32,000 bases of DNA from Ruminococcus albus 7 = DSM 20455. Lineage in GTDB: Bacteria; Bacillota; Clostridia; Oscillospirales; Ruminococcaceae. The position numbers were made by a program, and so were the translations under genes. Positions 7,263-27,418 of the stretch are shown one piece after another. The notes below the pieces were generated by a model. The model ran no database searches. It had not been told where the DNA came from and saw nothing but the letters and a program-made list of their open reading frames with translations. The stretch lies in assembly GCF_000179635.2 (NCBI RefSeq), contig NC_014833.1, forward strand, positions 360,001-392,000, read 5' to 3'. Each line of letters begins with the position of its first letter. Within the stretch, counting starts at the first letter, position 1.

Positions 7263-7263
7263 T

Positions 7264-10841: not shown

Positions 10842-10871
10842 TGACATAAACTGGAAAATCAAGCGGCCTTC

Positions 10872-10906
10872 AGCAGCCTCACCATAGGTGTGAGGCTGCT
10901 TTTTTG
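10872..10906 (+). terminator. Rho-independent terminator after the fumarate hydratase alpha gene
   Basis: AGCAGCCTCAC-cataggt-GTGAGGCTGCT followed by TTTTT. Confidence 0.85.
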
Positions 10907-10968
10907 CCTTATATAGGCACTCCTGATTGTTAATTATTGTAAATTTATTTGTGAATATTTTTCATTGG

Positions 10969-11010
10969 ATACAAAAACAAGACACACACATTGTATATGC
11001 ATACAAAAAC
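10969..11010. repeat. Direct repeat ATACAAAAAC x2 (10969-10978 and 11001-11010) upstream of the giant-operon promoter
   Basis: Exact 10-mers, 32 nt start to start, in a very AT-rich leader 33 nt upstream of the -35. Confidence 0.6.
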
Positions 11011-11042
11011 TAAGTTAATTATTTTTCTTAAATGGTCTAATG

Positions 11043-11071
11043 TTGACAACGGCGCATGACAGTGATATAAT
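11043..11071 (+). promoter_or_regulatory. Consensus extended -10 sigma-A promoter (TTGACA-17-TGaTATAAT) of the giant-protein operon
   Basis: ttgaca 11043-11048, an exact 17-nt spacer, TG at 11063-11064, tataat 11066-11071. It lies about 75 nt upstream of the first start codon. Confidence 0.7.
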
Positions 11072-11147
11072 TATAGTAGATAAGTATCTATGCGTATAGA
11101 GATAATAAAAACACACCCGTTTTCATGGGATACAGGAGGTGAAGCAG

Positions 11148-12305
11148 ATGAATGGTACAAATATGAAATATCCAATAGGCGAATTGGCTGAGTCTGCTTC
11201 TGCAGCTGTCCTGACGGCAGATGACCAGCGTTCTGAGAAAAAACAAGAACGCAACAGATCGATTATAAAGCTGTGTGCCATTGGCACGCTGATACTGATA
11301 GTGATCATCTTTTCTTCTATCGCGTGGTTTACTATGAATAGGGAAGTGGGGACCTCAGGGATGGGGGTGAAGGTGGCTCCTGCTCCGTTTGAACTTGAGG
11401 TCCGTGGCACAGACATTGAAAACGAAGACGATTTTTCAAAAGCTGATGATGAATATGATGATGGCGTGGATTTGGAAGAGCTAGATGCATATCAGACTGC
11501 CGGACAATATGGCAAGATAATCTGGAGAAAAACAGGCACCTCAGCTGACGATGGTCACTATCCTGATGGTTTATCACCTAATTCGCATGGCAAACTCACA
11601 TTTTGGGTTGTTCCAAACAGCACAGGGACACTTGATATAGAATTCAAATTCAAGGTCAGATGTTTTATCGGAACATATACTCCTGCAGCAACAGAAGATG
11701 CAGACCCTTCTTTAAATAATCTGTTTGAAGTAAACGAGAGCATGGAGGTTACAGCGGAAAACGGATTGAAAGATGCGGCAGATCTTGCTAAGAAAAAAGA
11801 TGCATTAAAATATATACAAAGCCACATCTTATTCTTCTCTGATTTTGACGGCACAAACTATTCGGGTTTTCTTGGAACAGGTCGGTCGATTAGATTCGGT
11901 GACTGTATAAATCCTTCAGCAGAGCCAAAAGCAAAGTATAATGCAGGAAATGCTGTGACTGTCACAGAGGGACAAAAATATCAGGTGACTATCTATTGGA
12001 AGTGGGCAAATACACTTGAGCAGATGATATTTGACAGCAATTCCCAATATAGAGACGATCCTTTGTTTGCAACATCAAACACAACGGATCGAAATGCAAT
12101 ATACACATATTTGAAAGACACCACTAATAACTCGGCTTTTTCCGGGGCATCAGACATTGAATCGCTTTTGACAACAATTCAAGGTGGAACAGATATTTCC
12201 ACAGCACTTGCAACGCTTACGACCGCATATGATAATGCCGATCAGATAATAGGTAATAATCTGGATTACATTTTGATTGAGATGATTGCAGAAACTGCAT
12301 CATAA
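11148..12305 (+). CDS. Secreted or anchored protein 1 of the giant-protein operon: N-terminal helix ending S-I-A|W-F, TasA/camelysin-like beta-rich body (hypothetical)
   Basis: The ORF opens at GTG 11139, but ATG 11148 lies 8 nt after AGGAGG (11134-11139). A ~40-aa polar N-tail is followed by the TM LCAIGTLILIVIIFSSIAWF. Later GLSPNSHGKLTFWVVPNSTGTLDIEFKF and YQVTIYWKW strands resemble TasA-family beta-sandwich signatures. Confidence 0.75.
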   Translation: MNGTNMKYPIGELAESASAAVLTADDQRSEKKQERNRSIIKLCAIGTLILIVIIFSSIAWFTMNREVGTSGMGVKVAPAPFELEVRGTDIENEDDFSKADDEYDDGVDLEELDAYQTAGQYGKIIWRKTGTSADDGHYPDGLSPNSHGKLTFWVVPNSTGTLDIEFKFKVRCFIGTYTPAATEDADPSLNNLFEVNESMEVTAENGLKDAADLAKKKDALKYIQSHILFFSDFDGTNYSGFLGTGRSIRFGDCINPSAEPKAKYNAGNAVTVTEGQKYQVTIYWKWANTLEQMIFDSNSQYRDDPLFATSNTTDRNAIYTYLKDTTNNSAFSGASDIESLLTTIQGGTDISTALATLTTAYDNADQIIGNNLDYILIEMIAETAS

Positions 12306-12328
12306 TCATTAAAGGAGGAGGTGCTATT

Positions 12329-13180
12329 ATGAGCAAGGTTTTTAACAAGATAAAAAACTTGAAACTCAAAGAGAAAATACAGCTTATTATGGCACTTCTT
12401 TTAACGTTAGCAATAATAGTGTCAATTCCGGTATACGCATGGTTTAATCATCAAAGACAAATTGCAGAGCTTCAAAGGATTAAAACACCGGACTTGTTAT
12501 ATATCAGCGCTGCATATGCTGAAGATGTAAAGTACTTTCAAATACCGTCCATAGATGTCGCTGATGAAAATAACACTAAGCATCGGCAGGTGTTTCCTTT
12601 TGCTGTAGCAGGTGAATATGTTCCTGAGTTTACTCTTCAGCTTGCTCACACAACAAACATTCCATTCACATATAAAATATACGAGGCGGAATACTATGAT
12701 ACCGAGTCTGCCGCTAGAACAGCGATAAATACTAAAAATCAGAGTATTGCTGAGGAAGCTGATAAACTCTCATATGAATATGATGCAGTAAAGTACGATG
12801 TTAAAGCAAAATGGACGATGCTGGATGAGTACACATTATCTCAGCGAACATTAAACGCAGGTGATACTCTCTATTTGGTTAAAGGGAATCAGGTTTCCGG
12901 AAGCTATTTGAACAGTACAACTTCAGGAAACCGATTAATTGCAAGCAATAAATACCATCCGGAAACATATAAGGATGGGGACAGTACTTATGGTCAGGTA
13001 CAAACATATGCTGAGCCGCTGTATTGGCAAAGCAGAAAAATATCAAGCGTCCCGAATCCTTCTGGATGGGGAGGAAATCCATTTTTCAAAACTTTTGTCA
13101 TAGAAATATCCTGGGATCCGTCTGAGGTGCAGAATGATAAAGAGACGGATATGATTTATATTTCCGCTTACAGGGAATAG
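12329..13180 (+). CDS. Secreted or anchored protein 2 of the giant-protein operon: signal-like helix ending V-Y-A|W-F (hypothetical)
   Basis: RBS aaaggaggagg lies 6-8 nt before the ATG at 12329. N-terminus is MSKVFNKIKNLKLKEKIQLIMALLLTLAIIVSIPVYAWFNHQ. 23-nt gap from the upstream gene. Confidence 0.75.
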   Translation: MSKVFNKIKNLKLKEKIQLIMALLLTLAIIVSIPVYAWFNHQRQIAELQRIKTPDLLYISAAYAEDVKYFQIPSIDVADENNTKHRQVFPFAVAGEYVPEFTLQLAHTTNIPFTYKIYEAEYYDTESAARTAINTKNQSIAEEADKLSYEYDAVKYDVKAKWTMLDEYTLSQRTLNAGDTLYLVKGNQVSGSYLNSTTSGNRLIASNKYHPETYKDGDSTYGQVQTYAEPLYWQSRKISSVPNPSGWGGNPFFKTFVIEISWDPSEVQNDKETDMIYISAYRE

Positions 13181-13219
13181 GCACTATTATCAATAATCAA
13201 AGAAAGGAGCAATGGCGCT

Positions 13220-14317
13220 GTGAAAAAGTCAATCCGGGCTAAGAAGTTTATAAAAAAACACTTAATCACAATATGGTTAGTTATAGCTGCTATTGCTTTC
13301 TGTGGGATTCTCGCTTATGCAAAGTTTAGTGATGGACAGAACTATACCAAGAGGGTTGTTTCAACAGGAACTAATGATAAGGTTTTATTTACTTCGAATT
13401 TGCTCAATACTTCAAATTCCGGACATCCGAAGTCTGTAACAAAAGGTTTTGCTGCTGATAGCTACTATGATATAAATATTTATAATTATGATAAGAATAA
13501 GGTATCAGCGTATTATCCTGGTACAATTAATTATACCTTAAGTGCTATGCTTGTTAAGCCTGATGCTAGTAGTACAGTCTATGATACTACAGTCACGGCA
13601 GACCTTAATGCATTAAAAGATGTTTTGATTGAAACACACGTCGATAATACAGACCCTGATAATCCGGTTACTACATATACTTATCACAAGATATACATAT
13701 ATCGACTGATTGACGGAACACCGGAAGATACGCCCATCGTAACGCTTGGCGCAATAGATCAAGATACAATGACCGCATCGTATGATTTAACGGGAGAACA
13801 GCTGGTGCCGGGAACATCTGGAAGTGCGGTTGAAAGCTACAGGGTGATTTTGCCTAAAGAAGTTATTGATTCAGATGTTCGAGTTAAGATCACAGCTCAA
13901 CCGAACGGACACAGTGATCTTCCTTCATCGATAGGCGGAGTGTTTTATATTCAGTCTCAGAACATAGTTATTACAACAGGATGGAAAGGCGAATTTGTTG
14001 ATAGCCGAACAAAAGCCCCGAGCGAATATGATGCATTTAATTATAGAATATCCGGAGCAGGAACGGCTAATAAGGTACTGAAGTGGAATAGTACTTATCT
14101 TCAGCCCAATAAGCAGGAGATAGCCGACCTTTTCGGTGACGGCTCGTTCTCAGCATCAACAAATCAAGAAACACACAGTTTTCCTTTAAAACCTGATGTT
14201 TATACTTATGATATCCAGTTTTATGTTAAGGATGCTGCAGCTAGAGAATATATCGATGGTTTGACATGGGAACAGCTGATAGCAGCTAATCTTGTCACCT
14301 TGGAAGATCCGCAATGA
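13220..14317 (+). CDS. Secreted or anchored protein 3 of the giant-protein operon: signal-like helix ending A-Y-A|K-F-S-D (SipW-class-like) (hypothetical)
   Basis: GTG start at 13220, 10 nt after aaaggag. N-terminus is MKKSIRAKKFIKKHLITIWLVIAAIAFCGILAYAKFSDGQ. 39-nt gap from the upstream gene. Confidence 0.72.
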   Translation: MKKSIRAKKFIKKHLITIWLVIAAIAFCGILAYAKFSDGQNYTKRVVSTGTNDKVLFTSNLLNTSNSGHPKSVTKGFAADSYYDINIYNYDKNKVSAYYPGTINYTLSAMLVKPDASSTVYDTTVTADLNALKDVLIETHVDNTDPDNPVTTYTYHKIYIYRLIDGTPEDTPIVTLGAIDQDTMTASYDLTGEQLVPGTSGSAVESYRVILPKEVIDSDVRVKITAQPNGHSDLPSSIGGVFYIQSQNIVITTGWKGEFVDSRTKAPSEYDAFNYRISGAGTANKVLKWNSTYLQPNKQEIADLFGDGSFSASTNQETHSFPLKPDVYTYDIQFYVKDAAAREYIDGLTWEQLIAANLVTLEDPQ

Positions 14318-14355
14318 TTTTCGGATTGCTTTGTTGGTAAAATGGAGTGATATAA

Positions 14356-17300
14356 ATGAAAAAACGTTTTAGAAAAAACAAAATTAATAATATAAGAAAA
14401 CGTATCATAAGCTCAGTGATAGTAGTTGCAATGCTTGTGAGTGACTGTCCTATGTCAGAACTTTCCAGAATTATTGGAAAAAAAGTGTCCTCGCCGTTTT
14501 CTCTTGAGGCTTCTGCTGCTGTAACATACGATAGGAGCGAATACACCAAGCATTACATAAATGAAGGGGTTGATACCGGTTACATACTCATCGAGTCATG
14601 GGATGATCTTGTTTGGTATTCTCAGTCGTATCACAATTATTCTCTTGGAACCGTATATACTACATCTGTAGAACACGAAAAAGATGTTCTGTTTATTAAT
14701 TTTGGTGCGAGTCAGGGAAATAACTACAACCTTAACGGAAAGGGCTATGTGCCTATCGGTAATGATTTAAAGCCATTTGAAGGAAGAGTAGTGTTTTCCA
14801 ACTCTTCTGCTGCTGATACATTTAATGTTCCTGAAGCGCTTTTTGGTACCATTTCTGAAACGGTTTCTATAAAAAATCAGGCTGAAACCGCCGTAAAGCA
14901 AATAAAGCTTACACGCACTGGCACAGGAAGCGGTGACGTATTATTTGCAAGAAAGGTAAAATCTGATGATGATAGCACCACTTGTGCGGAGTGGGACATA
15001 ATATTTGACAAGTTCGATAATTCTTCAGCTATTTCATATGCCGGATTGATAGGTGAGATTGAGGCTGGTGCAAATGTTCAGATTACTTATGAGAACAATT
15101 CCATTTTGACAAAATCAAATCTTGAAGCAAATGCAACATCTTCCGATACAGATGGTAAGCCGGTAGATGCCGGTGCCATTTGTGGAAAAATGGGTGCAGG
15201 GGCATCCCTGACTGCGACTTATTCCGGCACAAATACAGATTATAACATTACATCAGCTAATGGAAACGCAGGAGGCCTTGTTGGTTCAATGGAGGTTGGA
15301 TCTTCTCTGACAGTGACAACTTCTAATCTTCAGGGAGCTTCTGCTTGGGTATCTGCATCAAATGGTTATGCAGGTGGTATAGTCGGAAAAAATGACGGCG
15401 GTACGGTGACCATCACCCCATCATCCGGAACAACCTATACTGTTAGTCAGATAATACATGGAAAAGATGGCACAGGCGGATTATTTGGGTACTATGCACC
15501 ACCATCATTAGCTACGGCAGAACTTGATATTAGCAATTATTCAGTAAATTGCAAACTTGAGCAGGCAGTCTCGGAAACCGGCATCGGCGTTGCAGGCGGA
15601 ATAATAGGTGTTATTGAAAACGTTCCCGCAGACCCCACAGGAAGAGTAGGGGGCAGTTTAACAATTATAGGTAAGTCTGATGGTACTACTGTTGTAACCT
15701 CCACTCATGTTTCGCAAATAGATACCGTAACAGGTAAAGATACCGGTTATAAGGCTGAAGCATATGGTGGGCTTATCGGTTCTTATAAAGCAAGTGATAC
15801 CAGTTACTCTTTGAACATTAAGGATGTATCTACTACACCTACAAATACTCTTGCTGCTTCTGTTTATGGCGGAGGTATCGGTAAAATCATCGATGCATCG
15901 TATGTAAAGTTTGAAACCTTTAAGCTCAATAGTGCAGCAGGTGATCGTTCAGGAACATTTGGCGGGTTAGCGGCAGACAGTCCAAATGGATATATTTATG
16001 CAGATGGTTCAACAACAAATTCAAATTGTACAGGTATTGTAATTGGCAGTTCAGTGATTGACGGATTTACAGGTGGCGGTCTTGTAGGAAACCTTGGTGA
16101 CGGAGTTCTTGGAATAAAGGGCATGATTAATGTTTCAAATGCAAAACCTACTGCTGACGATACTAACGGTCATCTTGTCGGAACACGTGACAACGCTCTT
16201 ATCTATGCTGATGGAACTCCAAGCTACACCATGAGTAACATAGAAGTCGATAATGTTGGCTCTTGGGGCGATATTGTTGTTATTGACGGTACTAAACTGA
16301 AAAAGAATGCAACGTTAGATAATCTTAATGTGTTCAGTGAATCCAATCATATAATTACGATTGATAGTGTAACTCCTACAGCGATCGCAAATGCGGCGGA
16401 TTATGCAAAGGCATCACTTCTCTACCAAATTGAAGTTACAAAGAATGATTTTATTGCCAATGCTTCGAGTTTAACATCGAGTACTTCTGCACCATTAAAC
16501 CTTACATTTGGAGCAGATATCAATCTGACTGGAACTGGTCTTCGCGGAATAACCAGAGACAATGGAACCGACAGGGTTTCATATTCAGGTACGATCTCCG
16601 GCGGACATACGATTACTCTGGATATAAAGAATGTTGGCGGAAGCGACAGACCTGTCTATAGAAAGAAATACATCGGAATGCTTGGAATAGCAGATACCGT
16701 AACGATCAATAACACCACCTTTAGTGGTACTATTCTAAGCAAAAATGAAAGAACCACTGATAAAGACACCATATGTTATTTGGGGTCAGCTGCCGCACAG
16801 ATTAAAACAAGCTTTATCGCATCAAATTGCAATACAGCAAGTGGACTTAGTATAACTATGACTGGTTCAAAAGATGTTATTTCTGGCAGGCTGATAGGTG
16901 AAGCTGAGAGTGCTATTGGTACAATAACAATTTCTGGTAGCACATATGATGGAAATATTACCGGAAATAACAAAACGACTGTAGGTGGTACTATCGGCAA
17001 AATTGCCGGTGCTGCAAGCGGAGCTGTTTGGTCATTTAATGGTATCACTCTAAGAGGCAACGTAAAAGGAATACAACATGTCGGAGGCCTTATTTCTGAT
17101 GTTGAAGGTAGCGGTAATGCTACGATAAAACTTGGCAATTCTTCAAGTGTAGTTGCTGATAATAATCTTCATATTGAAGGAAACAGCAGTGACTCAATGG
17201 GAGGCCTGCTCGGTTATAGCTGGTCAAAAGCAGATGTGGAAGTCACAGATGTTGTAGCTTCCGGTCATCCTACAGTAGAACAAAAAAGCAGTGGTGGAGC

Positions 17301-20300
17301 TGCTGGCTTAGTTTATAGCGCTACAGGTCATTGGACTATTACAAAGCTGTACCTCGGCTATACTGACGCAGAAGAAAACTCTCATGCGATCAAAATGCTT
17401 ACCGGTACGGCTGGTTCTGTGGGCATGATCGTTAACAAAGGTAAAATAAGCAGTGACGGTATTTATCTCGAACTGCCTTCGGGATACGATTATAAACTTG
17501 CATATTATACTGCTGAAACAGAAGGCTCTGCTTTCAAATCTGGTGGTGTGTTTGATGAGATCTGCGCATACAGTGCTTCATCTAAAGATGCTATAATGAA
17601 CAACGGTCAGGGTATTGTTTCTATTAGCACGACCGGTCTGACAATGTCAACAACAGCGTCCGACAGCTTGAGTTATAAGAATCAGACTGTTCAGGGTAAA
17701 TATAAAAACGGAAATACAAGGTATTATTACAATTTGGATACTATTGATAAAGATAACACTCTATCTTCAACTGCTTATGCTAAGAAACTAATGAGATGGG
17801 GTGTACGTCAGTATGCCTGTGGAAATATCCAAAAGCATTTCCCCGATCCTTTCAGCAATAATACTATTCCTTCAGGAACATACAATATGCAGGGTTATAG
17901 CTGGTATCCAGTTACACCTCTTAACGCAATGACGGTAAACGGCACGTTTACTTTCTATAATAAGGAATTTGACGATTGCGAAAAAGTCAAGGGAAAGCAC
18001 GCAAATATTTCAGATGCTAGCAATAAAAACATCTGGTCACCGCTTGAGGCTGATCAGCATTACATGATGCAGAACGGCTTGTTTTATGATGTAAATAAAA
18101 ATATAACAATTGATGCAATCACACTTGCGGGTACTATCGGTGCAGTTGACAGTACCTCCGGTACCGGTGCGCTTGTTTACGGAAATGTAAAAGGAACTTC
18201 AACAGCCGTTACAACTATAAGCAATTCCGGAACGATTTCTTTAGCAGGCATCAGAGTATGGAATTTGAGTACTTATCCGGACTATGCGCCGCTACTTATC
18301 AATAAAGCAAGCGATTATGTTACATTTGATATTAAAAATGTATCAACAACGGATGCATATAAGAGAACAACGACAGGTGAATCCCCTGTTACAACGACGA
18401 TAGATGCCGCAACAAGTCTTATTGGTAAAGCCGGAACACGTGATACAGTCACCACAGACAGCAGCGGTAACCAAATACCGATAAGTCAGGGAATTACCGT
18501 CAGTTTCTCTGCAATTAAGCTTGACGGTAGAAATGCTGAAGAAGTTTCTGCCTATGGTACTACACCTGATCGTTATAATACTACAAAATCAATATTTACA
18601 AGGGCAACGCTGCTTGAACAGTTAATTGGTTCAAACGGCATATATAACTATACATTTGATGAGGACTGGGGTACGGGAACTCCTCATAAAGTTACTTATG
18701 GTAAAGAAGTAGGTTATACAACACAGGAACAGTATCCTAATCAGGAATTGTGGTATAAAGACGAAAAAGCAACCGGAGGCAAATCGAGATATACTCATCC
18801 TGACGCTGCGCCGCTCGATTCAGGTTCCACACGGTATACAGGTTTTGACTCATTCCGTCCTTATGTAGCAAGTGTAAGCACAAAAGCTGATATAGATGAT
18901 AAGACAGGGTTTAAGTACCAGCTTATGGTCAACCATCAGCCTTCGGACAAGATAGCCGGGTGCGGTACTTATAACGATCCGTATATTATTACAAGCGCAT
19001 CAGATCTAGTTACCATTTCAAAGTTTATAAACAGTAGTTCCAACCTTAATGGTACGATAAACTATGATGTTGATAAAGACGGATGGTGCGATTCTACAAC
19101 GGTAGGTGAGACAACGACTCTTTATACAGAGCATTTTGAATACACTCTCAATGGAACTTCAGCTGCTACCTGCTCAGGACAGTCTAATGTTACAGCTGAT
19201 GATATGAGAAAGTATCTTGCAAGCGCATATTATCAGATTCGTCTGTCAGGAGCTAATCAGCTTGTACTTACTTCTTCGTCAGGTTTCGTTGGCCTTGGCA
19301 CATCGGATATTCCCTTTTCCGGTGTTATTGACGGCGGACAGAATTCAACAACTACAATCGTAAATGAAACCCAGTACCCGCTGATTAACTACAGCGGCGG
19401 TTGTGTTGTAAGAAATCTAATCGTAACAGTTAATGAAACAGTTACCCTTGACGACGCGACAGATTCATATGATTATATTACGGGAGGAAAATCACACGGC
19501 GCTTATGGTGCCATAATTGCTGTCGTTGAAGGCGGCGATAATATAATCGATAATACACAGGTTACATTTGGCACATCTGTTATAAATGCAAAGGGTAAGA
19601 AAGCACAGTTCCAGCCGATCGGTGGTTATGTTGGTGTTGTTGTTAATGGCGGTGTTATATTCAGAAATATGACATCAGGCAACATTAGCGGTATTTCCAG
19701 TTCAAATGTATCAGCAGTACAAGGAGGCAACTGGCCTCAGATTAATTATTCTGACGGGAAAGCTATAGATACCACAGCCAAGCTGTCTGAATATACCGTT
19801 AATATGACTCAGCCAAATAATTTGCTTTGGCTCTATGTTAATCCTATTATCGGCAGGGTTATTAACGGTTATGCCGTGAACATTGCCTCCGCTTATCATC
19901 CTGCTTATTCAGACTGCATTATGAATAACGGTAATAAGAGTTATTCGATAACGGATATTTCTTTGTCAGGTGGTTCGTTAACAATTTCCGGATCAAATCT
20001 GACTGTTCCAAATGGTCAGGCGCTGTTCTTGACTTCCGTGATCGTAAACAGCGGCATGGGCGCAAATAATACGCTTGGCTATGCAGATACATATACTAAA
20101 CGTACTGCTGATTATAACAATGTGGGATCTAATGCTGTGGCATATACTTTATGTTCGGATTTCAATACCTATGCAAAGAATGATACAACAACTGGTACTG
20201 CGTATATTATTGATAATTTTGCAACCGATGGCAGTACGCTCGGAAGTGGAGGACCATGGAATATTACGCTAACATCGAATGGATCGTTTGTTCTTCCTGA

Positions 20301-23300
20301 TGGCTTCAGAGGTATTGGAAACTTTTATCAGAATGATACGAAGTATCTTCTGAATGTCAGCGATTTTAACGGTAATGGAGAAACTATAACTCAGAATACC
20401 TATTTCTATACATATGACGACGGTAGTGGTAAGTTTGATACAGTATATTATCCTAACACAGGTATTGAGGGGGCAGCGTCATATAGTAGTACAACAGACG
20501 CTGGAATAGGCTTATTTACCAGGCAGGTCCAAAACGGAGCAAATTATTATGATTTTAAACTGTCCGGAACACTTAAAAGCGACGTTATAAATCATAAAAC
20601 TGGTGTACACGTTGAATATACAGGAAATACTAAAACTGCTGGCTCTATAGTTGATGCTGGTAATTCTGATCTAAAACAAGTATTGTCAGCAGGAATGTTA
20701 TTTGGTAATTTTTCAGGAGCAGGAGCTAAAGGGGTTAGTAATTCTGCACCAACCTATATAACTAATGTTGCACTGGTAGATATTGATGTTAGCGCGGCCA
20801 AAATGGCAGGTGGAATGATTGGTATTGTACCTATTGGTGCTGCTAATACAGACGGTTTTACAAATATGGAGATAGAGGTTAATTCCAGCACTTATAATTC
20901 ATATGGCATAAAGGTTCATGGAGGACTAAGTTCAGCCGGTTTAATCGCAAGATATCAGCAAGGTATCTGTAATATTGATTTCCATGGGAACAGATTCGAT
21001 ATAAACGAAATTGTGAGCGACACAAAGTCAAATACAGATAACTATTATTATGGTGTCGGGGGTATTATAGGAACACTTAGAGCTGATAGAAATACCCCAG
21101 CAAGCCCTGTTACAATAAAAAATGTTACGTTGGGTGATAAAAATGCTACAAAAGCTATTGAGGTTAAATGTTCAGAGAGCGGATGCGGCATAAATGCCGG
21201 TGGATTGATCGGCTCACTTAACAGAGCTTCGGCGACAATGGACAATTGTCATGTGTTCAATGTTTCTGTATCTTCCAATGGGTCTTCAACTCATGTTGGC
21301 GGCGCTTTTGGCCATATGCGTACACAATGTAACGTTACTGTAATAGATTCCTCAATAGAATCAAATGACACCGCAAAAGCAAGTATAACAGGTAATGGTT
21401 ATGTTGGCGGCTTCTTGGGCAACTCTCCGATAACCGGTGATCAGGCTCGAACATTTATCGTGGAAAACAGTAGGATCAAAGGGTATACGATATCCGGAAA
21501 TATTTCCGGCGGTATTGTAGGTGATAGAGCTGCTATTAACGCTACCTATTATCTTACCGTTAACAATTTTTCAATTGAAAAATGTACTATCAAAGGTGAT
21601 ACATATGCCGGTGGTTTGGTTGGCTATTTACATCATCCGTTGAGCGGCTATAACATTTTGGCAAAGGATTTAACTTTTGAACCTCATACTGAAGGCGGCA
21701 CTATTGCCAATCTTGGTTATTTAGTAGCGAAAAATGATAGTGTAATCAAATTGGTAGGTTTTTCTCGTCAGGCTGATTCTTCATCAACGATGGTTCAGGC
21801 TATGACCGGCGGAAGCAACGCTACAAATTATGGCAATGGCGGATATGTTATCTTTGCTGATTATATGGGTACGGCATCGTATAACAACAGCACCTTTACT
21901 CCGGGGGAAAACTCGAAGAATGCTTTTTCAGGCATGACAAGCAGTACAAATGTAACGCCTTATGCTCCTTATGTATCGACGAGCCCGTTTGCAAATATTG
22001 CAAATTATAACTCTGTCATGCAGTATCTGCTAAGTGATGGCGCAAGCCCGCTGACGAGTGCAACATTCGGTCGTTCTACACAAGCTTTTGCCAAGATTTA
22101 TGATGATATTGCCAATAACAATAATGGCTACTATGAGATACCAAAAGCATATCTTGATACGGAGGATGAGTATAAGTCGTATACTACAAAAATCTCATCA
22201 TTTAAAACTGAAATGGGCGACAAGCTTGCGAATGGAATAGATTTTCCTGTGCTTGTGCTTGATAAAATTAACAAAGGTGAGATGACTGATTTTATAAATC
22301 ACTATATAAATCTACTTACAAATACGTCAAGCACATATAATTTTGCAACAAGTGCTAATAGTACAATATACGATGTTGATATTTACAAGGTTATATTTAA
22401 TGCTGCCGGTGATGAGATAAGCACTATTACAGATGTAGACACCTGTCTTAAAGTTAATGCTGGAACAAATGCAACTGCCCAGTTCTATATTGAATCCGAT
22501 GATACGGATACAGCTGCCTCGACAGCACAGTTTACTCTGATGGATGTTAAGTTTATGAATCCTTCGGCTACGGGAACGGTTGCATATCATCTATATATTC
22601 CCTGTTATGTCAGAAAGCTTCTTGAATACGATTTTGATATCCATATAGATTCAGGAACGACCTATGACATAAACAAATATACTCAGCTCACTGAAAATAG
22701 TCTTGTTGAGAATATCGGAACACCTATAACTCTTGAATTTGCATTTACCTACCAGCGTAATGCTCAGGAATGGACGGAAGCGGTCAACGGCGGAGACTCA
22801 CTTCTCTCTAATTATCCTAAGAGTTTACTATTTGACAACTCAACTACTGTAACATCTGGATCAAAGCCTCAATTCTCGTCCACAACCAAAATGGTTCTTA
22901 TTGATACGCAGAATTCTTCAAAGGCATATTATCTTGATGGACTCAATAATACTTCGTTCACTCCATCAGGGGATTACAGAACATTGAACTTCAGTAGTTT
23001 TGCTGATCTTAATAGTACTGGATTTACGCCTGTAAGTTTCAATGATATGTTAAATGTTTCTGTAACGCCAAATTCATCCGGAACGCTTGTGCAGGATAAT
23101 AACAATGCTATTGTTAAGGACACTACAACGGGAACAAAATATAGACTGGCGACTGATGCAGATACCGCTCTTACAAAATACACTGCAACTGTCACATTCA
23201 AAAACGAAGGAGATACAGCTCTTTCCGAACATTATTTCCTGACAATATATACTCCGTATTCAACTGCTGATGTTGTTTACCATTATGTTGTTCAGGCAAA

Positions 23301-24615
23301 TAAAGATCTCGGAACCGATCCATATCCTTCAAGAATTACGTCAGAATCAGAAAGCAACGTTGTTCATTTGTATACAGGCTATATTTATAACAACCATGTG
23401 TATATCGATAGTCTCAAGGTTGGTGGAGTAGAAAACTATGAGGAAATAACAGCAGAGAACAACTCCATCGAAGCGAGTATTCATGCAACTATAGGACTTA
23501 CTTCTTCTGGTGAAGAGAACATCAGATCTACCTTATCGGCTACCACGCCGCCTGACATTTTCCAGAGTTTTCTGATAAAACTCAACAAGGATGGAAATGT
23601 TGGACTTGCTGCGGCAAGTTCGGTTACAGTAGAGAATTATAGAATTGGTAATAAGCTTGTGACTGACTCTACCATGAACCCGTCGTGGACTAGTGCTGAA
23701 TACACGGATATGCGCATACCTAATTACATTGAAATGAGAAATGGTGTCCCTCTTGCACGATCTCTTTCTGAGATTCCTGCTAATGGAACGCTTAACGTTT
23801 CAGCGAAAGCGACCATTACCTTTGATAATGACAATGGTGATATCACTGCTCAGTTCTTCCCGCAAACGGCTGAAAAATACACAACGCTCATTGCTTATTC
23901 AAATATTGCATCAAGTAGCGAGAATACGGCTTCGAGTAATGTTTCAGCGTATGCTGATACCACGGTCGGAGGAACCAAACCTCAATATTATACAAAGATT
24001 GAAGAAAAGGCAATACTGAATTATGATGCGCTTGATGTTCCGGCAGACGGAAGCAATTTGCCGCAGCTTGGAATTAATGCCAATGATCCAAATGACATTA
24101 AGAAGCTACCTGCACCTATAAAAACGGTAGCATCATATAATGTTGAAAATTGTCAGTCAGCATGGCAAGTGGCCAATTTCGTCAAAATTGAAATTGAATT
24201 GAAATCAAAAAATGATGGATATACTGCACCTTTAGGTATTTTTGATTACATCCAAGAAAGCACGTTTACAATATTTGATGGTGAGATTGATTCCGATGAT
24301 ATAATAACAACTGGGACTACTGCGAACAAATTGATTTATATTATTGACAAGACTGATTTGGAACAGTTTTATAATGATAAGGTATATCGTATTCCAATTG
24401 ATTTCAATGTTTACTCTGGAAGCGGAGCAAGTAATAATTTTGAATCGGTAAATAAGCAGTATTCTAATTATGGTATATTCATAAAGGTGTCAATGCTTCA
24501 AGCGGCGGATTCCGAATCAGCGGTAAGTGGAACAGAACCGGAGTATAATAACAACAATTTTGTTAAGTATACAAATGCTAGGATATACCTTGAAAAGGTG
24601 AATCCAAACAAATAG
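14356..24615 (+). CDS. Giant (3,419 aa) secreted GLUG-repeat, predicted beta-helical surface/fibre protein without a recognisable wall anchor
   Basis: 10,260 nt with no in-frame stop in AT-rich DNA, and a GGAG RBS before the ATG. N-terminus is basic (MKKRFRKNKINNIRKR) followed by a hydrophobic helix. About 24 GG[LIV][IVF]G-type motifs counted by eye, for example NAGGLVGS, YAGGIVGK, VAGGIIGV, AYGGLIGS, NAGGLIGS, YAGGLVGY. A 'GCGTYNDPYIITSASDLVTISKFI' module head lies at ~nt 18955. Rich in T/S/N/G. Confidence 0.9.
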   Translation: MKKRFRKNKINNIRKRIISSVIVVAMLVSDCPMSELSRIIGKKVSSPFSLEASAAVTYDRSEYTKHYINEGVDTGYILIESWDDLVWYSQSYHNYSLGTVYTTSVEHEKDVLFINFGASQGNNYNLNGKGYVPIGNDLKPFEGRVVFSNSSAADTFNVPEALFGTISETVSIKNQAETAVKQIKLTRTGTGSGDVLFARKVKSDDDSTTCAEWDIIFDKFDNSSAISYAGLIGEIEAGANVQITYENNSILTKSNLEANATSSDTDGKPVDAGAICGKMGAGASLTATYSGTNTDYNITSANGNAGGLVGSMEVGSSLTVTTSNLQGASAWVSASNGYAGGIVGKNDGGTVTITPSSGTTYTVSQIIHGKDGTGGLFGYYAPPSLATAELDISNYSVNCKLEQAVSETGIGVAGGIIGVIENVPADPTGRVGGSLTIIGKSDGTTVVTSTHVSQIDTVTGKDTGYKAEAYGGLIGSYKASDTSYSLNIKDVSTTPTNTLAASVYGGGIGKIIDASYVKFETFKLNSAAGDRSGTFGGLAADSPNGYIYADGSTTNSNCTGIVIGSSVIDGFTGGGLVGNLGDGVLGIKGMINVSNAKPTADDTNGHLVGTRDNALIYADGTPSYTMSNIEVDNVGSWGDIVVIDGTKLKKNATLDNLNVFSESNHIITIDSVTPTAIANAADYAKASLLYQIEVTKNDFIANASSLTSSTSAPLNLTFGADINLTGTGLRGITRDNGTDRVSYSGTISGGHTITLDIKNVGGSDRPVYRKKYIGMLGIADTVTINNTTFSGTILSKNERTTDKDTICYLGSAAAQIKTSFIASNCNTASGLSITMTGSKDVISGRLIGEAESAIGTITISGSTYDGNITGNNKTTVGGTIGKIAGAASGAVWSFNGITLRGNVKGIQHVGGLISDVEGSGNATIKLGNSSSVVADNNLHIEGNSSDSMGGLLGYSWSKADVEVTDVVASGHPTVEQKSSGGAAGLVYSATGHWTITKLYLGYTDAEENSHAIKMLTGTAGSVGMIVNKGKISSDGIYLELPSGYDYKLAYYTAETEGSAFKSGGVFDEICAYSASSKDAIMNNGQGIVSISTTGLTMSTTASDSLSYKNQTVQGKYKNGNTRYYYNLDTIDKDNTLSSTAYAKKLMRWGVRQYACGNIQKHFPDPFSNNTIPSGTYNMQGYSWYPVTPLNAMTVNGTFTFYNKEFDDCEKVKGKHANISDASNKNIWSPLEADQHYMMQNGLFYDVNKNITIDAITLAGTIGAVDSTSGTGALVYGNVKGTSTAVTTISNSGTISLAGIRVWNLSTYPDYAPLLINKASDYVTFDIKNVSTTDAYKRTTTGESPVTTTIDAATSLIGKAGTRDTVTTDSSGNQIPISQGITVSFSAIKLDGRNAEEVSAYGTTPDRYNTTKSIFTRATLLEQLIGSNGIYNYTFDEDWGTGTPHKVTYGKEVGYTTQEQYPNQELWYKDEKATGGKSRYTHPDAAPLDSGSTRYTGFDSFRPYVASVSTKADIDDKTGFKYQLMVNHQPSDKIAGCGTYNDPYIITSASDLVTISKFINSSSNLNGTINYDVDKDGWCDSTTVGETTTLYTEHFEYTLNGTSAATCSGQSNVTADDMRKYLASAYYQIRLSGANQLVLTSSSGFVGLGTSDIPFSGVIDGGQNSTTTIVNETQYPLINYSGGCVVRNLIVTVNETVTLDDATDSYDYITGGKSHGAYGAIIAVVEGGDNIIDNTQVTFGTSVINAKGKKAQFQPIGGYVGVVVNGGVIFRNMTSGNISGISSSNVSAVQGGNWPQINYSDGKAIDTTAKLSEYTVNMTQPNNLLWLYVNPIIGRVINGYAVNIASAYHPAYSDCIMNNGNKSYSITDISLSGGSLTISGSNLTVPNGQALFLTSVIVNSGMGANNTLGYADTYTKRTADYNNVGSNAVAYTLCSDFNTYAKNDTTTGTAYIIDNFATDGSTLGSGGPWNITLTSNGSFVLPDGFRGIGNFYQNDTKYLLNVSDFNGNGETITQNTYFYTYDDGSGKFDTVYYPNTGIEGAASYSSTTDAGIGLFTRQVQNGANYYDFKLSGTLKSDVINHKTGVHVEYTGNTKTAGSIVDAGNSDLKQVLSAGMLFGNFSGAGAKGVSNSAPTYITNVALVDIDVSAAKMAGGMIGIVPIGAANTDGFTNMEIEVNSSTYNSYGIKVHGGLSSAGLIARYQQGICNIDFHGNRFDINEIVSDTKSNTDNYYYGVGGIIGTLRADRNTPASPVTIKNVTLGDKNATKAIEVKCSESGCGINAGGLIGSLNRASATMDNCHVFNVSVSSNGSSTHVGGAFGHMRTQCNVTVIDSSIESNDTAKASITGNGYVGGFLGNSPITGDQARTFIVENSRIKGYTISGNISGGIVGDRAAINATYYLTVNNFSIEKCTIKGDTYAGGLVGYLHHPLSGYNILAKDLTFEPHTEGGTIANLGYLVAKNDSVIKLVGFSRQADSSSTMVQAMTGGSNATNYGNGGYVIFADYMGTASYNNSTFTPGENSKNAFSGMTSSTNVTPYAPYVSTSPFANIANYNSVMQYLLSDGASPLTSATFGRSTQAFAKIYDDIANNNNGYYEIPKAYLDTEDEYKSYTTKISSFKTEMGDKLANGIDFPVLVLDKINKGEMTDFINHYINLLTNTSSTYNFATSANSTIYDVDIYKVIFNAAGDEISTITDVDTCLKVNAGTNATAQFYIESDDTDTAASTAQFTLMDVKFMNPSATGTVAYHLYIPCYVRKLLEYDFDIHIDSGTTYDINKYTQLTENSLVENIGTPITLEFAFTYQRNAQEWTEAVNGGDSLLSNYPKSLLFDNSTTVTSGSKPQFSSTTKMVLIDTQNSSKAYYLDGLNNTSFTPSGDYRTLNFSSFADLNSTGFTPVSFNDMLNVSVTPNSSGTLVQDNNNAIVKDTTTGTKYRLATDADTALTKYTATVTFKNEGDTALSEHYFLTIYTPYSTADVVYHYVVQANKDLGTDPYPSRITSESESNVVHLYTGYIYNNHVYIDSLKVGGVENYEEITAENNSIEASIHATIGLTSSGEENIRSTLSATTPPDIFQSFLIKLNKDGNVGLAAASSVTVENYRIGNKLVTDSTMNPSWTSAEYTDMRIPNYIEMRNGVPLARSLSEIPANGTLNVSAKATITFDNDNGDITAQFFPQTAEKYTTLIAYSNIASSSENTASSNVSAYADTTVGGTKPQYYTKIEEKAILNYDALDVPADGSNLPQLGINANDPNDIKKLPAPIKTVASYNVENCQSAWQVANFVKIEIELKSKNDGYTAPLGIFDYIQESTFTIFDGEIDSDDIITTGTTANKLIYIIDKTDLEQFYNDKVYRIPIDFNVYSGSGASNNFESVNKQYSNYGIFIKVSMLQAADSESAVSGTEPEYNNNNFVKYTNARIYLEKVNPNK

Positions 24616-24911
24616 GAGTAACCTACACACCATTGTCCCCTAAAACCCAATCCATCCTCACAGGGCATACAGGGGATATAGGGTGTGTGGCGAGATAGGT
24701 AAAACTCCTGTCAAAAACTCAAAGCTTTGTCAAAGGATGACCCGCCTTTCCCCCAATCCCTTAAATTTTCCCCTGGCCTTAACCCGGCAAATCCAATGAA
24801 GTGGAGAGTATTAAGAAAGAAGCCGCAGGTTTATGTAGAAAAAGGTAAAGGTAAAGTGGTAGAAAACAAGTAATGAATATCACCGAGTATTAAAACAAAT
24901 TAATATTTCCT

Positions 24912-24974
24912 AATAACACCCCAGGGGAAGAGAAGAGTAATACTTTTCTACTTTACCCACCGGGGTGTTATTTT
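24912..24974 (+). terminator. Long hairpin plus T-rich tail, a possible distal terminator of the giant operon
   Basis: AATAACACCCC (24912-24922) pairs with GGGGTGTTATT (24962-24972), followed by TTAT. The ~39-nt loop has further partial pairing. It lies ~300 nt after the stop codon, so the assignment is weak. Confidence 0.3.
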
Positions 24975-24997
24975 ATATAGTAGGGCACTTTAGTAGT

Positions 24998-25005
24998 GTA
25001 AATGG
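24998..25005. repeat. Target-site duplication (left copy) GTAAATGG of the IS66-family element
   Basis: An identical 8-mer directly abuts both inverted repeats (24998-25005 and 28011-28018). Confidence 0.9.
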
Positions 25006-25115
25006 GTAAGCGTATAACCCCCAGCACCTACCCCACCGAAGTCTAATAAAGTATAATAAACTCCAAGGAACACCATGAAGTAAATTGAATAATCCAAATT
25101 GATCCATGGAGTTCA

Positions 25116-25463
25116 TTGGAGACGATTAGACAAGGAGGTAACAGGTATGGACAAAACAACATCCATCACAACAATCAAAAAGAAATGCAGCTTCAGGAAT
25201 GGTCTGCGCAGATCAAAGCACAGCAGGCAAGCGGTCTGACGATCCGGGAATGGTGCAAAGAAAATGGGATCAAGCCAAACACGTATTACAACCGCCTAAG
25301 AAAAGTTCGTGAAAAGTATATCGAAAATTCTCCGACCATCGTTCCTGTATCAGTTCCTTGCTCAAACGAAAATATCCGCATTGAGAAAAACGGACTTCAA
25401 ATATCTCTTCCGGCAGATATATCTGCGGACACTCTGACCGCTTTGGTGCATGAGCTATGCTGA
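25116..25463 (+). CDS. tnpA: IS66-family accessory protein TnpA (Orf1, HTH); start uncertain
   Basis: MQLQEWSAQIKAQQASGLTIREWCKENGIKPNTYYNRLRKV is the conserved IS66 Orf1 core (ATG 25185). The best RBS (AAGGAGG 25132-25138) serves ATG 25147 in another frame, which would join this frame if the A5 run at 25177-25181 were A6. Confidence 0.75.
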   Translation: METIRQGGNRYGQNNIHHNNQKEMQLQEWSAQIKAQQASGLTIREWCKENGIKPNTYYNRLRKVREKYIENSPTIVPVSVPCSNENIRIEKNGLQISLPADISADTLTALVHELC

Positions 25464-25815
25464 ATGATCTGGCAGCGGACGCACAGGTCTATCTTGTTAC
25501 GGGATACACCGACCTTCGACGCGGGATAGACGGACTTGCGACTATCGTTCAGGCTCAGCTTCGACTTGACCCGTTCTCGAAAGCATTGTTTTTGTTCTGC
25601 GGCAGACGTTGTGACCGCATCAAAGGTCTGCTGTGGGAGGGCGATGGTTTTCTGCCTGTTCGTACAAGCGCCTTGACAACGGAAGATTCCAGTGGCCGCG
25701 CAGTGAGACCGAAGCAGTAATGCTCACATCTCAGCAAATTCGCTGGCTTCTGGAAGGCTTGAAAATAGAGCAGCCGAAGGCTATCCGTGAGGGAAAGCCG
25801 GGGGCGCTGTATTAA
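25457..25815 (+). pseudogene. tnpB: IS66-family TnpB (Orf2), frameshifted as assembled
   Basis: Two overlapping ORF pieces (25457-25720, 25633-25815) together spell the conserved ...LFLFCGRRCDRIKGLLWEGDGF / YKRLDNGRFQWPR...LTSQQIRWLLEGL. One extra T in the T4 run at 25648-25651 restores a single frame. Confidence 0.85.
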
Positions 25816-25907
25816 GGCAATACTTACCGAATATTCAGAATATGTGCTTGAAAAGCCCCTCTTTTCGTGGTATCATTAAAGTATCATAACGAACGGAGGG
25901 GTGCTTT

Positions 25908-27418
25908 ATGTCCGAACCAAATATGACATCGGAAATTGTATCGCTCCGTAATGAAAACGCTGTTCTCAAGGAAGAACTAGCACTTGCCAATCAGCAGTTA
26001 GCGTGGTTCAGAAAGCAGATATTCGGAAGAAAAACAGAGCAGACATCTGTTGTTATGGAAAAGGAGTTCGGTGTTCAGCTTTCCATGTTCGGAAACAATG
26101 AAGAAAAATCCGCAGCTAAATCTGCCGAAACAATTACTGTTCCCGAACACAAGCGCAAGAAAAAACGCACTCACGATGAATGGATGAACAATCTGCCTGT
26201 AAAAGAAGAACATCACAAAATTGACAACCCGGTATGCGAAATATGCGGCGCCGAAATGGAAGAACTGACTCCCGAAAAGGCTTACGATGAACTTATATTT
26301 ACGCCGCCAAAATATCATATCCGCAGGCATATAGTACATAAGTACAAGTGTCCCGAGTGCGGAGAAAAGCCCGAAGAAAGGGACGAACCTTGTCATATCA
26401 TCCGTGCGCCATATCCTCACGCTATGATCCCGGGAAGCTATTGCTCTCCCGAACTTCTGGCTCATATCATCTACGAAAAATATGCAAAGTCAGTACCTCT
26501 GCACCGTCAGGAAAAGGACTTTAATTCCAAAAACATACCTCTGCTCAAAGCGACTATGTCTAATTGGGTAGGCACTGCTGCCGAAAAATGGTGTTTGCCG
26601 ATTGTGGAGAAAATGCATGAGACGCTTATCGCAGGGCAGATGATCCATGCCGATGAAACGACCGTTCAGGTGCTTCACGAGGAAGGCCGAAAGCCTACCA
26701 CGACATCAAGAATGTGGGTCTACTGCAACGGCAAAATGAATGACAGGAGCATCATCATTTTCGATTATCAGCCGACACGAAAGGGTGAGCACGCCTCGAA
26801 TTTCCTGAAAGGATTTATCGGCTATCTTATCTGTGACGGATACGATGCCTACAATGCAGTCGAGGGTGCTAAGCGATGCGGCTGTATGACTCATGCAAGG
26901 CGTGGTTTTATTCAGGCTCTTCCGAACGACCAAAAGCTGCACAGCACTTCTGTTGCGGCAAAGGCAGTAGAATATTTCAACAAGATATATCACGAAGAAA
27001 ATCTGCTTGCCGACAGCTCCACAGAATACAGATATAAACAGCGCCTTGTGAAGGTAAAGCCTTTGCTTGACGAGTTTTTTGCGTGGCTTGAAAATGTTCA
27101 GGTCAGTGGTAAGGGCAAGCTGACAGATGCAGTAAGATATGCGTTGAATGAACGGAAATATCTTTACACGTTTCTTGAAAACGGAGACGTGCCTATCGAC
27201 AACAACAGAGCCGAAAACGCAATAAGACCGTTTGCGTTAGGCCGAAAAATTGGCTGTTTTCAAATACAGCAAACGGAGCCAGATCAAGTGCAACGCTGTA
27301 TTCGATCATTTCAACTGCACAGGCGAACGGTGTTGATGCTGAGAAATACCTGACCGAGCTGTTTTCACAGCCTGCGGGGACGATATTATTACCATGGAGG
27401 GAAGAAAATGAAACTTAG
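25908..27418 (+). pseudogene. tnpC: IS66-family transposase TnpC (DDE), C-terminus frameshifted as assembled
   Basis: The 481-aa ORF has a zinc-ribbon-like CEICG...CPECG and the IHADETTVQV / DGYDAYN / DNNRAENAIRPFALGRK motifs. After GRK the conserved continuation NWLFSNTANGARSSATLYSIISTAQANGVDAEKYLTELF is in the next frame (stop at 27416-27418). The A5 run at 27245-27249 would need to be A6. Confidence 0.9.

Follow-up and report, generated by a model that had tools for sequence, protein, structure and literature searches.

In the TapA-SipW-TasA system of Bacillus subtilis, the N-terminal segment of mature TasA serves as a donor strand. The TasA signal has characteristic features: 18-21 residues separate its last charged residue from the cleavage junction, which reads TWA↓AFND (camelysin, TFA↓YFSD; the arrow marks the cleavage site, which is a predicted one in the proteins studied here). 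Features of TasA are also given in PMC11580942, which deals with the BsaA/BsaB/BsaC-SipW operon of Clostridium perfringens. There, BsaA and BsaB are remote TasA homologues, whereas BsaC is a ~70-kDa von Willebrand factor A (vWA) protein that requires type IV pilus genes to be exported; anchoring of the oligomers is in the membrane and not in the wall (PMC11580942). A further class, the CoCoPALM systems, was named in a single paragraph in 2024, with its description deferred and no cargo named (Bell et al., eLife 2024, PMC11090510). Here we analyse a 32-kb stretch of the Ruminococcus albus 7 chromosome (the window) that carries a cassette of four genes, encoding three small proteins, P1, P2 and P3, and a giant protein of 3,419 amino acids (aa).

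The four genes form one operon that is conserved as a unit in other species. In related genomes it is linked to an operon encoding SipW-like signal peptidases and McrBC-like proteins, and the same machinery is present elsewhere in the R. albus genome. Together with the intact motifs of these enzymes and an N-terminal module shared between cassette and machinery proteins, these observations lead us to propose that the cassette serves a surface-fibre system of SipW/McrBC-like (CoCoPALM) type as an orphan cargo or tip module, a reading that we hold with slightly better than even confidence. Our literature searches found no follow-up on CoCoPALM beyond its naming in 2024 and, for SipW with McrB or Ruminococcus and for the Rumal locus tags, nothing on the system considered here.

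The cassette is an operon conserved as a unit

Four co-directional open reading frames (ORFs) make up the cassette, with gaps of 23, 39 and 38 nucleotides between P1, P2, P3 and the giant (Table 1; positions are those of the whole window, + strand unless stated). The promoter-like site upstream of P1, which agrees with the consensus at all 12 positions, is the best such match within 10700-25300. No strong or convincing terminator-like site was found in the three intergenic gaps, and a ribosome-binding site precedes every start: AGGAGG (P1), GGAGGAGG (P2), AAGGAG (P3) and GGAG (giant). All four products begin with a basic region and one hydrophobic segment. In these respects (tight co-directional spacing, one promoter, canonical ribosome-binding sites and a basic N-region with one hydrophobic helix in each product) a preliminary description made from the sequence alone was borne out. 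P2, P3 and the upstream fumarase are identical to ADU20909, ADU20910 and ADU20907 of R. albus 7 (ATCC 27210 / DSM 20455), and assembly GCA_000621285.1, like several read-set assemblies, contains the cassette DNA with 100% identity. The giant gene is split in one read-set assembly (L003) by two indels in an otherwise 99.98% identical sequence; these are probably sequencing errors, and we did not retain the split as real.

All four genes have homologues. A word-indexed search returned 108 homologues of P1, and an exhaustive profile search 1,621 cluster representatives at E≤1e-3 (50% identity clusters from gut and rumen metagenomes). Scanning one genome per species with a profile of 35 P1 sequences gave 29 loci, in Ruminococcus, other Oscillospiraceae, Eubacterium xylanophilum, Acetatifactor, Coprococcus, Schaedlerella and Hominimerdicola. 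Where at least 3.5 kb of sequence was available downstream of P1, the giant was present in 20 of 20 loci, P2 in 18 of 20 and P3 in 16 of 20. The loci seemingly without P2 or P3 are probably explained by a different gene order, P1-giant-P2, in a Hominimerdicola/Ruminococcus clade (L020, L022, L025 and L026). Relatives with only 26-27% identity in P1 have the same four-gene order as R. albus, with giants of 3,495-3,507 aa. In three Lachnospiraceae loci (L032, L034 and L040, from metagenome-assembled genomes (MAGs) of Coprococcus, Acetatifactor and Schaedlerella) the giant lies upstream of P1, and in L040 the small genes are followed by a second giant, so that tandem duplication of cassettes is possible. 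In all, about 30 species of Oscillospiraceae and Lachnospiraceae keep the cassette as a unit; the preliminary description had staked its proposal on this point, and the operon-like unit was found in many genomes. The species-representative scan returned no near-identical copy, the closest being that of Ruminococcus sp. YE71 (P1 77% identical).

A signal peptidase and McrBC-like operon adjoins the cassette in other genomes

Among the loci with at least 6 kb of upstream sequence, 8 of 19, from two families, have ATPase and SipW-like genes within 10 kb of the cassette, and the linked block is also seen in several shorter contigs and metagenomic loci. It mostly lies directly upstream, on the same strand as the cassette (it is divergent in L010), and its genes follow a common order: X332 (~330 aa, exported), an EAL protein, X239/X244 (small membrane or exported proteins), a peptidase of ~220 aa, a P-loop protein of ~525 aa, a protein of ~700 aa, a second ~220-aa peptidase and two small proteins. 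In some genomes, the second peptidase is fused to the ~700-aa protein, giving a product of 986 aa.

Both peptidases are archaeal-type signal peptidases I, with 93.8 and 82.4 bits against TIGR02228 (cutoff 51.85) and SipW as the next-best model; the cassette-linked peptidases overall score 82-94 bits. The motif (G/D)SM(E/K)P is present in 17 of 19 distinct peptidase sequences and NTHR(I/V) in all 19. In most loci both paralogues retain the two motifs. With their catalytic Ser and His preserved, these proteins have the look of genuine peptidases and not merely of chaperones for assembly. Features of the P-loop protein are a transmembrane segment (residues 46-87), a coiled coil, a Walker A motif (GISGTGKTS), a Walker B motif (LLDEMN) and the sequence GTANNDDST, whose N-N-D-D can be read either as NxD then D or as NxxD. 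Its McrB match is weak (E=0.018), and Pfam detected no FtsB homology. DUF2357 (PF09823, the McrC N-terminal domain) was identified in the ~700-aa protein with 41.5 bits against a cutoff of 23.3, and the 986-aa fusion has a charged coiled coil at residues ~370-590, followed by transmembrane segments.

Could the cassette and the machinery be unrelated, their adjacency reflecting the repeated landing of mobile surface-protein islands in one variable region? The context of the cassette differs between genomes and insertion sequence (IS) elements flank it in the window, as such a scenario would have it. Against this, the eight adjacent species-level loci come from two families, mostly with the cassette in the same order and orientation directly downstream of the machinery, P1 and P2 have an N-terminal module in common with the machinery-encoded family X332 (see below), and all three genomes that we checked with a detached cassette also hold the machinery. 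We regard a chance association as highly improbable.

The R. albus 7 chromosome carries an ATPase (P0190) that is 81% identical to the cassette-linked ATPase of a Ruminococcus MAG. The R. albus machinery was also found on scaffold KK211249.1 of GCA_000621285.1, an assembly that contains the cassette too; on this scaffold, the ATPase is flanked by EAL, X239, a first SipW-like peptidase, a fusion of the McrC-like protein to the second SipW-like peptidase, X151 and X74, with a divergent GGDEF gene. The genome search for a SipW-like signal peptidase suggested in the preliminary description was in this way successful. In Ruminococcus sp. YE71 and R. flavefaciens YL228, machinery and cassette are on different contigs. 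The link between the two is genetic and not obligate in cis, because three sampled machinery loci have no giant within 10 kb; the cassette looks like an accessory module that is served in cis or in trans.

Identity to R. albus is 76-81% for the ATPase (46% in the two most distant loci) and 24-42% for P1, P2, P3 and the giant of the same genomes, a pattern that, from sequence comparison, is that of a conserved motor with fast-evolving, presumably exposed cargo. Genes associated with cyclic di-GMP (c-di-GMP) lie in or beside the operon: EAL inside it in most genomes, PilZ in one, and the divergent GGDEF gene in R. albus. This link looks systematic; a radical SAM/SPASM gene upstream of the machinery in one clade may be coincidental.

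A quite different function, in which the whole assembly is a conflict system of McrBC ancestry (anti-phage defence or toxin delivery) with the giant as effector or sensor, is brought to mind by the ATPase, which matches the PADLOC McrB-like candidate PDC-M26A (9e-39) and weakly McrB, and by the hypervariable cargo and the low-GC, IS-flanked cassette. However, the PADLOC match is confined to residues 205-323, the core of the ATPase, and PADLOC has no match to P1, P2, P3, the giant, the peptidases or the McrC-like protein. In addition, no nuclease or toxin domain was found, all cargo proteins carry export signals, the c-di-GMP enzymes of the operon are typical of surface and biofilm control, and no phage or plasmid copies were found. 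We consider a conflict role very unlikely. Plasmid matches for the ATPase were to distant McrB-like AAA proteins only.

X332-like genes beside the R. albus machinery

Positions 1-7400 of the R. albus machinery locus (L042) hold a cluster of X332-like genes, putatively encoding the major subunit. The cluster comprises the C-terminal end of one copy (131-451), a 5′-truncated silent copy (4308-5387, +) that starts exactly at EYAWFTMSKEVEVTGIK, a full copy containing a scaffold gap (7018 to 5488, -) and an orphan signal-peptide fragment (7341 to 7132, -). Between these copies stand two genes for large serine recombinases (647-4271), and the conserved segment that encodes the junction carries an inverted repeat of 92 nucleotides (77% complementary). 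Among three strains, identity is 90-98% from the signal-peptide segment onward (promoter and EAL operon), with sharp divergence in the mature part of this X332-like gene. Such a pattern suggests that the X332-like subunit undergoes cassette replacement or inversion, i.e. antigenic variation.

P1 and P2 have an N-terminal module in common with X332

P1 begins with a cytoplasmic N-region of ~40 residues and a hydrophobic helix, followed by the junction SIA59↓W60F and by a beta-sandwich with helices. Among 76 homologues, W60 never varies, and conservation of F61 and N64 is 90% or higher. The residue at position -1 of the junction is always A, G or S (~30 P1, 26 P2, 25 P3 and 11 X332 sequences), and the residues that follow are WF in P1, P2 and X332 and (K/R/A)(F/Y) in P3. 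The consensus junctions are ATYA↓WFTMNKEV in X332, xIA↓WFTMNREVxxSGMGVK in P1, xYA↓WFxxQRxIAEL in P2 and AYA↓KFxDxxNxxKRVVST in P3. The motif that had been noticed at the helix end of the three R. albus proteins (SIA↓WF, VYA↓WF and AYA↓KF) is thus real and kept across homologues. Reading the sequences for a class III signal of type IV pilins or pseudopilins gave none, as the preliminary description had also concluded: the conserved motif sits after, not before, the hydrophobic helix, and there is no G↓F...E.

BLASTP found no similarity among P1, P2 and P3. HHalign, in contrast, paired P1 with X332 at 96%, X332 with P2 at 94% and P1 with P2 at 90% probability, with the alignments confined to ~55 N-terminal residues; the link of P3 to this module is weaker (40%). 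Of the mature parts, only those of X332 and X239 are related (96.5%).

Would these N-termini be cleaved? P1, P2 and P3 might alternatively be uncleaved bitopic proteins that form a signal-anchored platform or export complex, WF being an interfacial membrane motif and the machine serving only X332-type substrates. Several features agree with this: the segments of P1, P2 and P3 are very hydrophobic (Kyte-Doolittle 2.3-3.0, vs. 1.7-2.0 in X332), the cytoplasmic N-region of P1 is ~40 residues long, the AlphaFold2 helix of P1 (residues 17-65) runs through the junction, and about half of the cassettes are far from the machinery. On the other hand, every family has a strictly small residue at position -1, the last charged residue lies 18-21 residues from the junction in P1, P2 and P3, as in X332, and the module is shared specifically with X332, which has a typical cleavable signal. 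Furthermore, cassette-adjacent machinery is usually co-directional and upstream, as in one transcription unit (with the exception of L010). A permanently anchored platform appears unlikely to us.

The mature parts of P1, P2 and P3

The small proteins fall outside the curated families: P1, P2 and P3 have no Pfam match and no NCBIfam match at E≤1, the few listed matches being far below cutoffs. TIGR04088, the SipW-cognate signal model, matched none of the full proteins at E≤1; with N-terminal pieces of 60-100 aa taken from P1, P2, P3, X332 and the giant, there was no match at E≤10 either. A Pfam scan of 11 X332 homologues gave no match, and searches of the PDB with P1, P3 and X332 profiles at E≤10 returned chance matches only. 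The earlier assignment of the small proteins to a SipW class draws support from context, in that archaeal-type signal peptidases adjoin the cassette in many species and occur in the R. albus genome, but it finds no counterpart in TIGR04088.

The AlphaFold2 model of P1 (76 sequences; pLDDT (local distance difference test, as predicted) 89.6, predicted template modelling score (pTM) 0.78) has a long continuous N-terminal helix (residues 17-65) through the junction, a low-confidence linker (68-75) and a beta-sandwich with helical inserts. Foldseek returned nothing from the PDB for this model at E≤0.001. The P3 model (pLDDT 82.9) consists of a helix, a disordered stretch (34-53) and two immunoglobulin (Ig)-like beta-sandwiches, a domain pair such as is found in pilus and adhesin subunits. 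Its Foldseek matches are generic two-domain Ig-like proteins (Vpr fibril, FimH, FimA, CfaE, RbmA and FnBPA; E 5e-5 to 2e-3, template modelling (TM) score ~0.2).

The preliminary description saw in the small proteins a TasA-like shaft or basal platform and proposed a profile search with the Peptidase_M73/TasA family. In its strict form, this means that P1, P2 and P3 resemble TasA, use donor-strand exchange to polymerise into the shaft or platform and so carry the giant, the system being self-contained but for a SipW peptidase. By our comparison, the P1, P2 and P3 junctions appear to resemble those of TasA and camelysin; the scan with TIGR04088 was, as stated, negative. The segment after the junction is modelled with low confidence in both P1 (68-75) and P3 (34-53), as would be expected of an exchangeable strand, and the top Foldseek match of P1 is the TasA fibre (8aur_A). 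However, this match is not significant (E=0.022, probability 0.23, TM 0.14/0.22), neither Peptidase_M73 nor TIGR04088 matches, and the three globular parts are mutually unrelated. The profile searches thus lend no support to the label 'TasA-like'. There is also a better candidate for the shaft: X332/X239 have typical cleavable signals, occur as several paralogues and are encoded inside the machinery operon, which suggests that they, rather than proteins encoded in the window, are the likeliest shaft subunits. We judge a TasA-type shaft built from P1, P2 and P3 to be improbable. Nor does P3, a generic two-domain Ig-like protein, bear out the earlier shaft-or-platform idea.

The giant protein

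The giant starts with a basic region and a 13-residue h-region, with an AxA site only ~25 residues further on. This signal (residues 1-55; 14356-14520) is atypical: the short h-region is followed by a conserved P(M/L)(S/A)(E/D)(I/L)S and then by the conserved AxA. We rejected the idea that this N-terminus is that of a lipoprotein, since only two homologues have a lipobox-like LIGC. No second hydrophobic 19-mer is present in the giant, and none of the four cassette proteins has LPxTG, LPxT[AGSN] or a C-terminal hydrophobic segment. Among the scanned window ORFs of at least 80 aa outside the cassette, we found no gene for sortase, SLH, dockerin, type I secretion or accessory Sec functions; the sole ABC transporter of the window is of ABC-2 type and lies 9 kb upstream. 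The preliminary description had reported the lack of all these display and secretion elements and had called the giant anchorless; within this scope we agree, having found neither a sortase-type nor another known anchor.

Homologues of the giant are 3,237-3,507 aa long and collinear over their whole length at 26-42% identity (90% for Ruminococcus sp. YE71), which upholds the view that this is a real gene. The degree of conservation is rather uniform along the protein and peaks at residues 1100-1900. Self-BLAST detected no internal repeats, and there are no tandem DNA repeats in the cassette. Being collinear, conserved in length and free of internal or tandem DNA repeats, the giant is unlike the usual giant adhesins of variable repeat number. 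Its sequence contains 13 GG[LIVF]x[GA] motifs in two patches (Table 1), several of them at 34-residue spacing, and the first patch suggests the rungs of a solenoid.

The giant had been labelled a GLUG-repeat protein. No Pfam model, GLUG included, matched it at E≤1 or 16 of its homologues at E≤0.1, and searches of NCBIfam (E≤1) and of PDB sequences with the giant were without match. The only PDB profile match of the giant family, to a putative IgA1 protease (3n6z), is not significant (E=0.43) and maps to the second patch. The profile searches thus lend no support to this label. A phage or plasmid origin of the giant was likewise rejected, tblastn of both collections having found no copy.

A proposed cargo or tip module served by the machinery

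In the arrangement that we favour, P1, P2 and P3 would be inserted by Sec with the N-terminus inside the cell, and the SipW-like peptidases of the system would cut them at the small-x-small↓(W/K/R/A)(F/Y) junction. The new N-terminal segments, common to P1/P2 and X332, would let P1, P2 and P3 join a fibre made mainly of X332/X239 subunits. They would act there as adaptors carrying the giant, the displayed element, which is probably solenoid-rich and presumably adhesive, and the c-di-GMP enzymes encoded in or beside the machinery operon would control the system. More tentatively, a membrane-bound ring of the McrB-like GTPase and a McrC-like plunger fused to the SipW peptidase might couple nucleotide hydrolysis to cleavage and polymerisation while the P1-P3 adaptors load the giant; we see this as a possible but rather doubtful elaboration.

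A number of observations weigh against the cargo or tip module. The window itself has no peptidase or ATPase (phmmer with ATPase, McrC-like and SipW queries), adjacency to the machinery is lacking in about half of the cassettes, and the three sampled machinery loci mentioned above have no giant within 10 kb. The strong hydrophobicity of the P1, P2 and P3 segments makes permanent anchors possible, and the giant has no WF-type junction. Statistical similarity of the cassette and X332 families to TasA/camelysin or to the SipW-cognate signal model is absent, and the best structural match of P1, to the TasA fibre, falls short of significance. The relatives of the GTPase are mostly restriction or defence proteins. 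Finally, a transcriptome of R. albus 7 lists the genes that are more than 4-fold up on cellulose (PMC4300822), and the cassette genes, by inferred locus-tag numbering, are not among them.

Genomic setting

The GC content of the cassette is 37-41%, vs. 44-47% in its flanks. Upstream neighbours are CAAX protease and fumarase genes, with an IS110-family transposase further away (7524-8699, -); an IS66-family element directly follows the giant, and after it comes a truncated SNF2-helicase ORF (28367-29284, +). The flanking IS elements and the dip in GC suggest that the cassette is a variable or acquired island. The fumarate hydratase alpha-subunit gene (9999-10841, +) ends at a strong terminator, and a beta-subunit (Fumerase_C) gene was not found among the window ORFs scanned; the cassette may have inserted between the alpha and beta genes, or the beta gene may be located elsewhere. 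A gene for a 165-aa helix-turn-helix protein (Cro/C1-type; 29354-29851, -) would be Rumal_0360 if tags run consecutively from the fumarase; Rumal_0360 is reported as 10-fold up on cellulose vs. cellobiose (PMC4300822).

Table 1. Features of the cassette, its boundaries and the machinery loci. Positions refer to the window unless a locus is named.
Feature	Position	Strand	Remarks
Intrinsic terminator of the upstream fumarate hydratase gene	10872..10900	+	Left boundary of the unit; 11-bp stem with 7 GC pairs, then T-run
Promoter-like site	11043..11071	+	TTGACA-17-TATAAT with TG extension; 12/12 match; sigma-70-type
P1	11148..12305	+	385 aa; alternative GTG start at 11139 gives 388 aa
P1 hydrophobic helix and junction	11271..11339	+	Residues 42-64, LCAIGTLILIVIIFSSIA↓WFTMN; predicted signal-peptidase site before W60 (nucleotide 11325)
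P2	12329..13180	+	283 aa; ADU20909 / WP_013497101; junction VYA37↓W38F
P3	13220..14317	+	365 aa; ADU20910; GTG start; junction AYA34↓K35F, then conserved KRVVST...FxSNxL segment and two Ig-like beta-sandwich domains
Giant protein	14356..24615	+	3,419 aa; N-terminal Sec-type signal; no C-terminal anchor
First GG[LIV]x[GA] patch of the giant	15253..16095	+	Residues ~300-580; motifs at 306, 340, 374, 414, 471, 536, 574; glycines invariant in 17 homologues
Invariant segment GCGTYNDPYII of the giant	18958..18990	+	Residues 1535-1545; most conserved part; G1535, C1536, G1537, T1538, Y1539, P1542 invariant
Second GG[LIV]x[GA] patch of the giant	21043..21630	+	Residues ~2230-2425; motifs at 2235, 2282, 2351, 2385, 2419
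IS66-family element	25116..27353	+	orf1, TnpB-like orf2, DDE transposase; Pfam HTH_Tnp_1, TnpB_IS66, DDE_Tnp_IS66; right boundary, outside the system
R. albus ATPase	L042 10001-11581		Outside the window, same genome
Accessory genes near machinery	L025 2-1123; L010 7310-8074; L007 6050-6727; L042 15323-16963		

Significance

The cassette and its link to CoCoPALM-type machinery appear to be undescribed; the type of machinery has already been named, and SipW-dependent fibres are known. The mechanism of assembly behind it has a substantial chance of being categorically new. All four proteins, including the 3,419-residue giant, lie outside every curated family, which means a sizeable body of surface biology, in Ruminococcus and Lachnospiraceae, that is unannotated. 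The link also gives the CoCoPALM system, so far merely named, a concrete candidate cargo, together with a pair of genetically defined loci in R. albus 7. This type organism can be cultivated, and its attachment to plant fibre, which is central to its ecology, has yet to be fully explained. The conserved motor (76-81%) and fast-evolving cargo (24-42%), together with the signs of X332 swapping, suggest selection on the surface structure by phage or host.

On the more tentative reading, in which nucleotide hydrolysis is coupled to cleavage and polymerisation, the giant and its partners would be the first identifiable cargo of a so far uncharacterised class of extracellular-fibre machine in monoderm bacteria, with a restriction-enzyme motor turned into a pilus or secretion motor, in a cellulose degrader of the rumen that can be cultivated. 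Should the McrB-like GTPase indeed drive fibre assembly or export, this would be a new use of a restriction-type AAA+ motor and, for Gram-positive bacteria, a new sortase-independent display route.

Comparison with known systems

The locus differs from sortase-anchored pili in having no LPXTG, C-terminal tail or sortase gene in the cassette or window ORFs, and from type I-secreted RTX/Bap-like adhesins in having no tandem repeats (by self-BLAST, at the DNA level and by Pfam) and an N-terminal Sec-type signal instead. With GLUG proteins (PF07581, e.g. 3n6z) the giant has GG[LIV]xG motifs at ~34-residue spacing in common; however, the 3n6z match has an E value of only 0.43, the GLUG model matches neither the giant nor the 16 homologues, and the giant is non-repetitive. 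Chaperone-usher pili (FimA shaft, FimF/FimG adaptors, FimH adhesin) are alike by analogy only, in that divergent small subunits with a shared polymerisation segment link a large distal adhesin to a shaft formed by another subunit. There is no homology, the host is a monoderm without usher or chaperone, and the matches of P3 to FimH, FimA and CfaE are those of a generic Ig-like fold (TM ~0.2).

The TapA-SipW-TasA system and camelysin CalY have, as here, a dedicated archaeal-type signal peptidase and a substrate junction of small-x-small then x-F. Display is sortase-independent and connected with biofilm regulation, and the mature N-terminal segment, a donor strand in TasA, may be one here as well. 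In contrast to TasA, there is no sequence or profile similarity and no significant fold match; our system has two peptidases, a McrBC-like GTPase pair and c-di-GMP enzymes, its three small cassette proteins are mutually unrelated beyond their N-termini, and the 3,419-aa partner is without a TasA counterpart. The BsaABC operon, likewise clostridial, combines a SipW peptidase with two subunits of fibre type and a larger accessory protein that is co-exported. It differs in that the proteins studied here have no TasA or vWA signal, and in that BsaC relies for its export on type IV pilus genes and not on a McrBC-like GTPase.

The preliminary description could not match the locus to any characterised system. 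This holds for the cassette proteins, which are without a family, but the linked machinery fits the CoCoPALM systems (eLife 2024, PMC11090510). The genes that define these systems are absent from the window, being linked to the cassette in other genomes and placed in trans here. Where they occur, the N-terminus of the GTPase, weakly similar to McrB, has a transmembrane segment and a coiled coil, and its N-N-D-D may correspond to the shortened NxD signature of CoCoPALM; the McrC homologue, with DUF2357 and a coiled coil, and the associated proteins of the signal-peptidase family agree with that type (PMC11090510).

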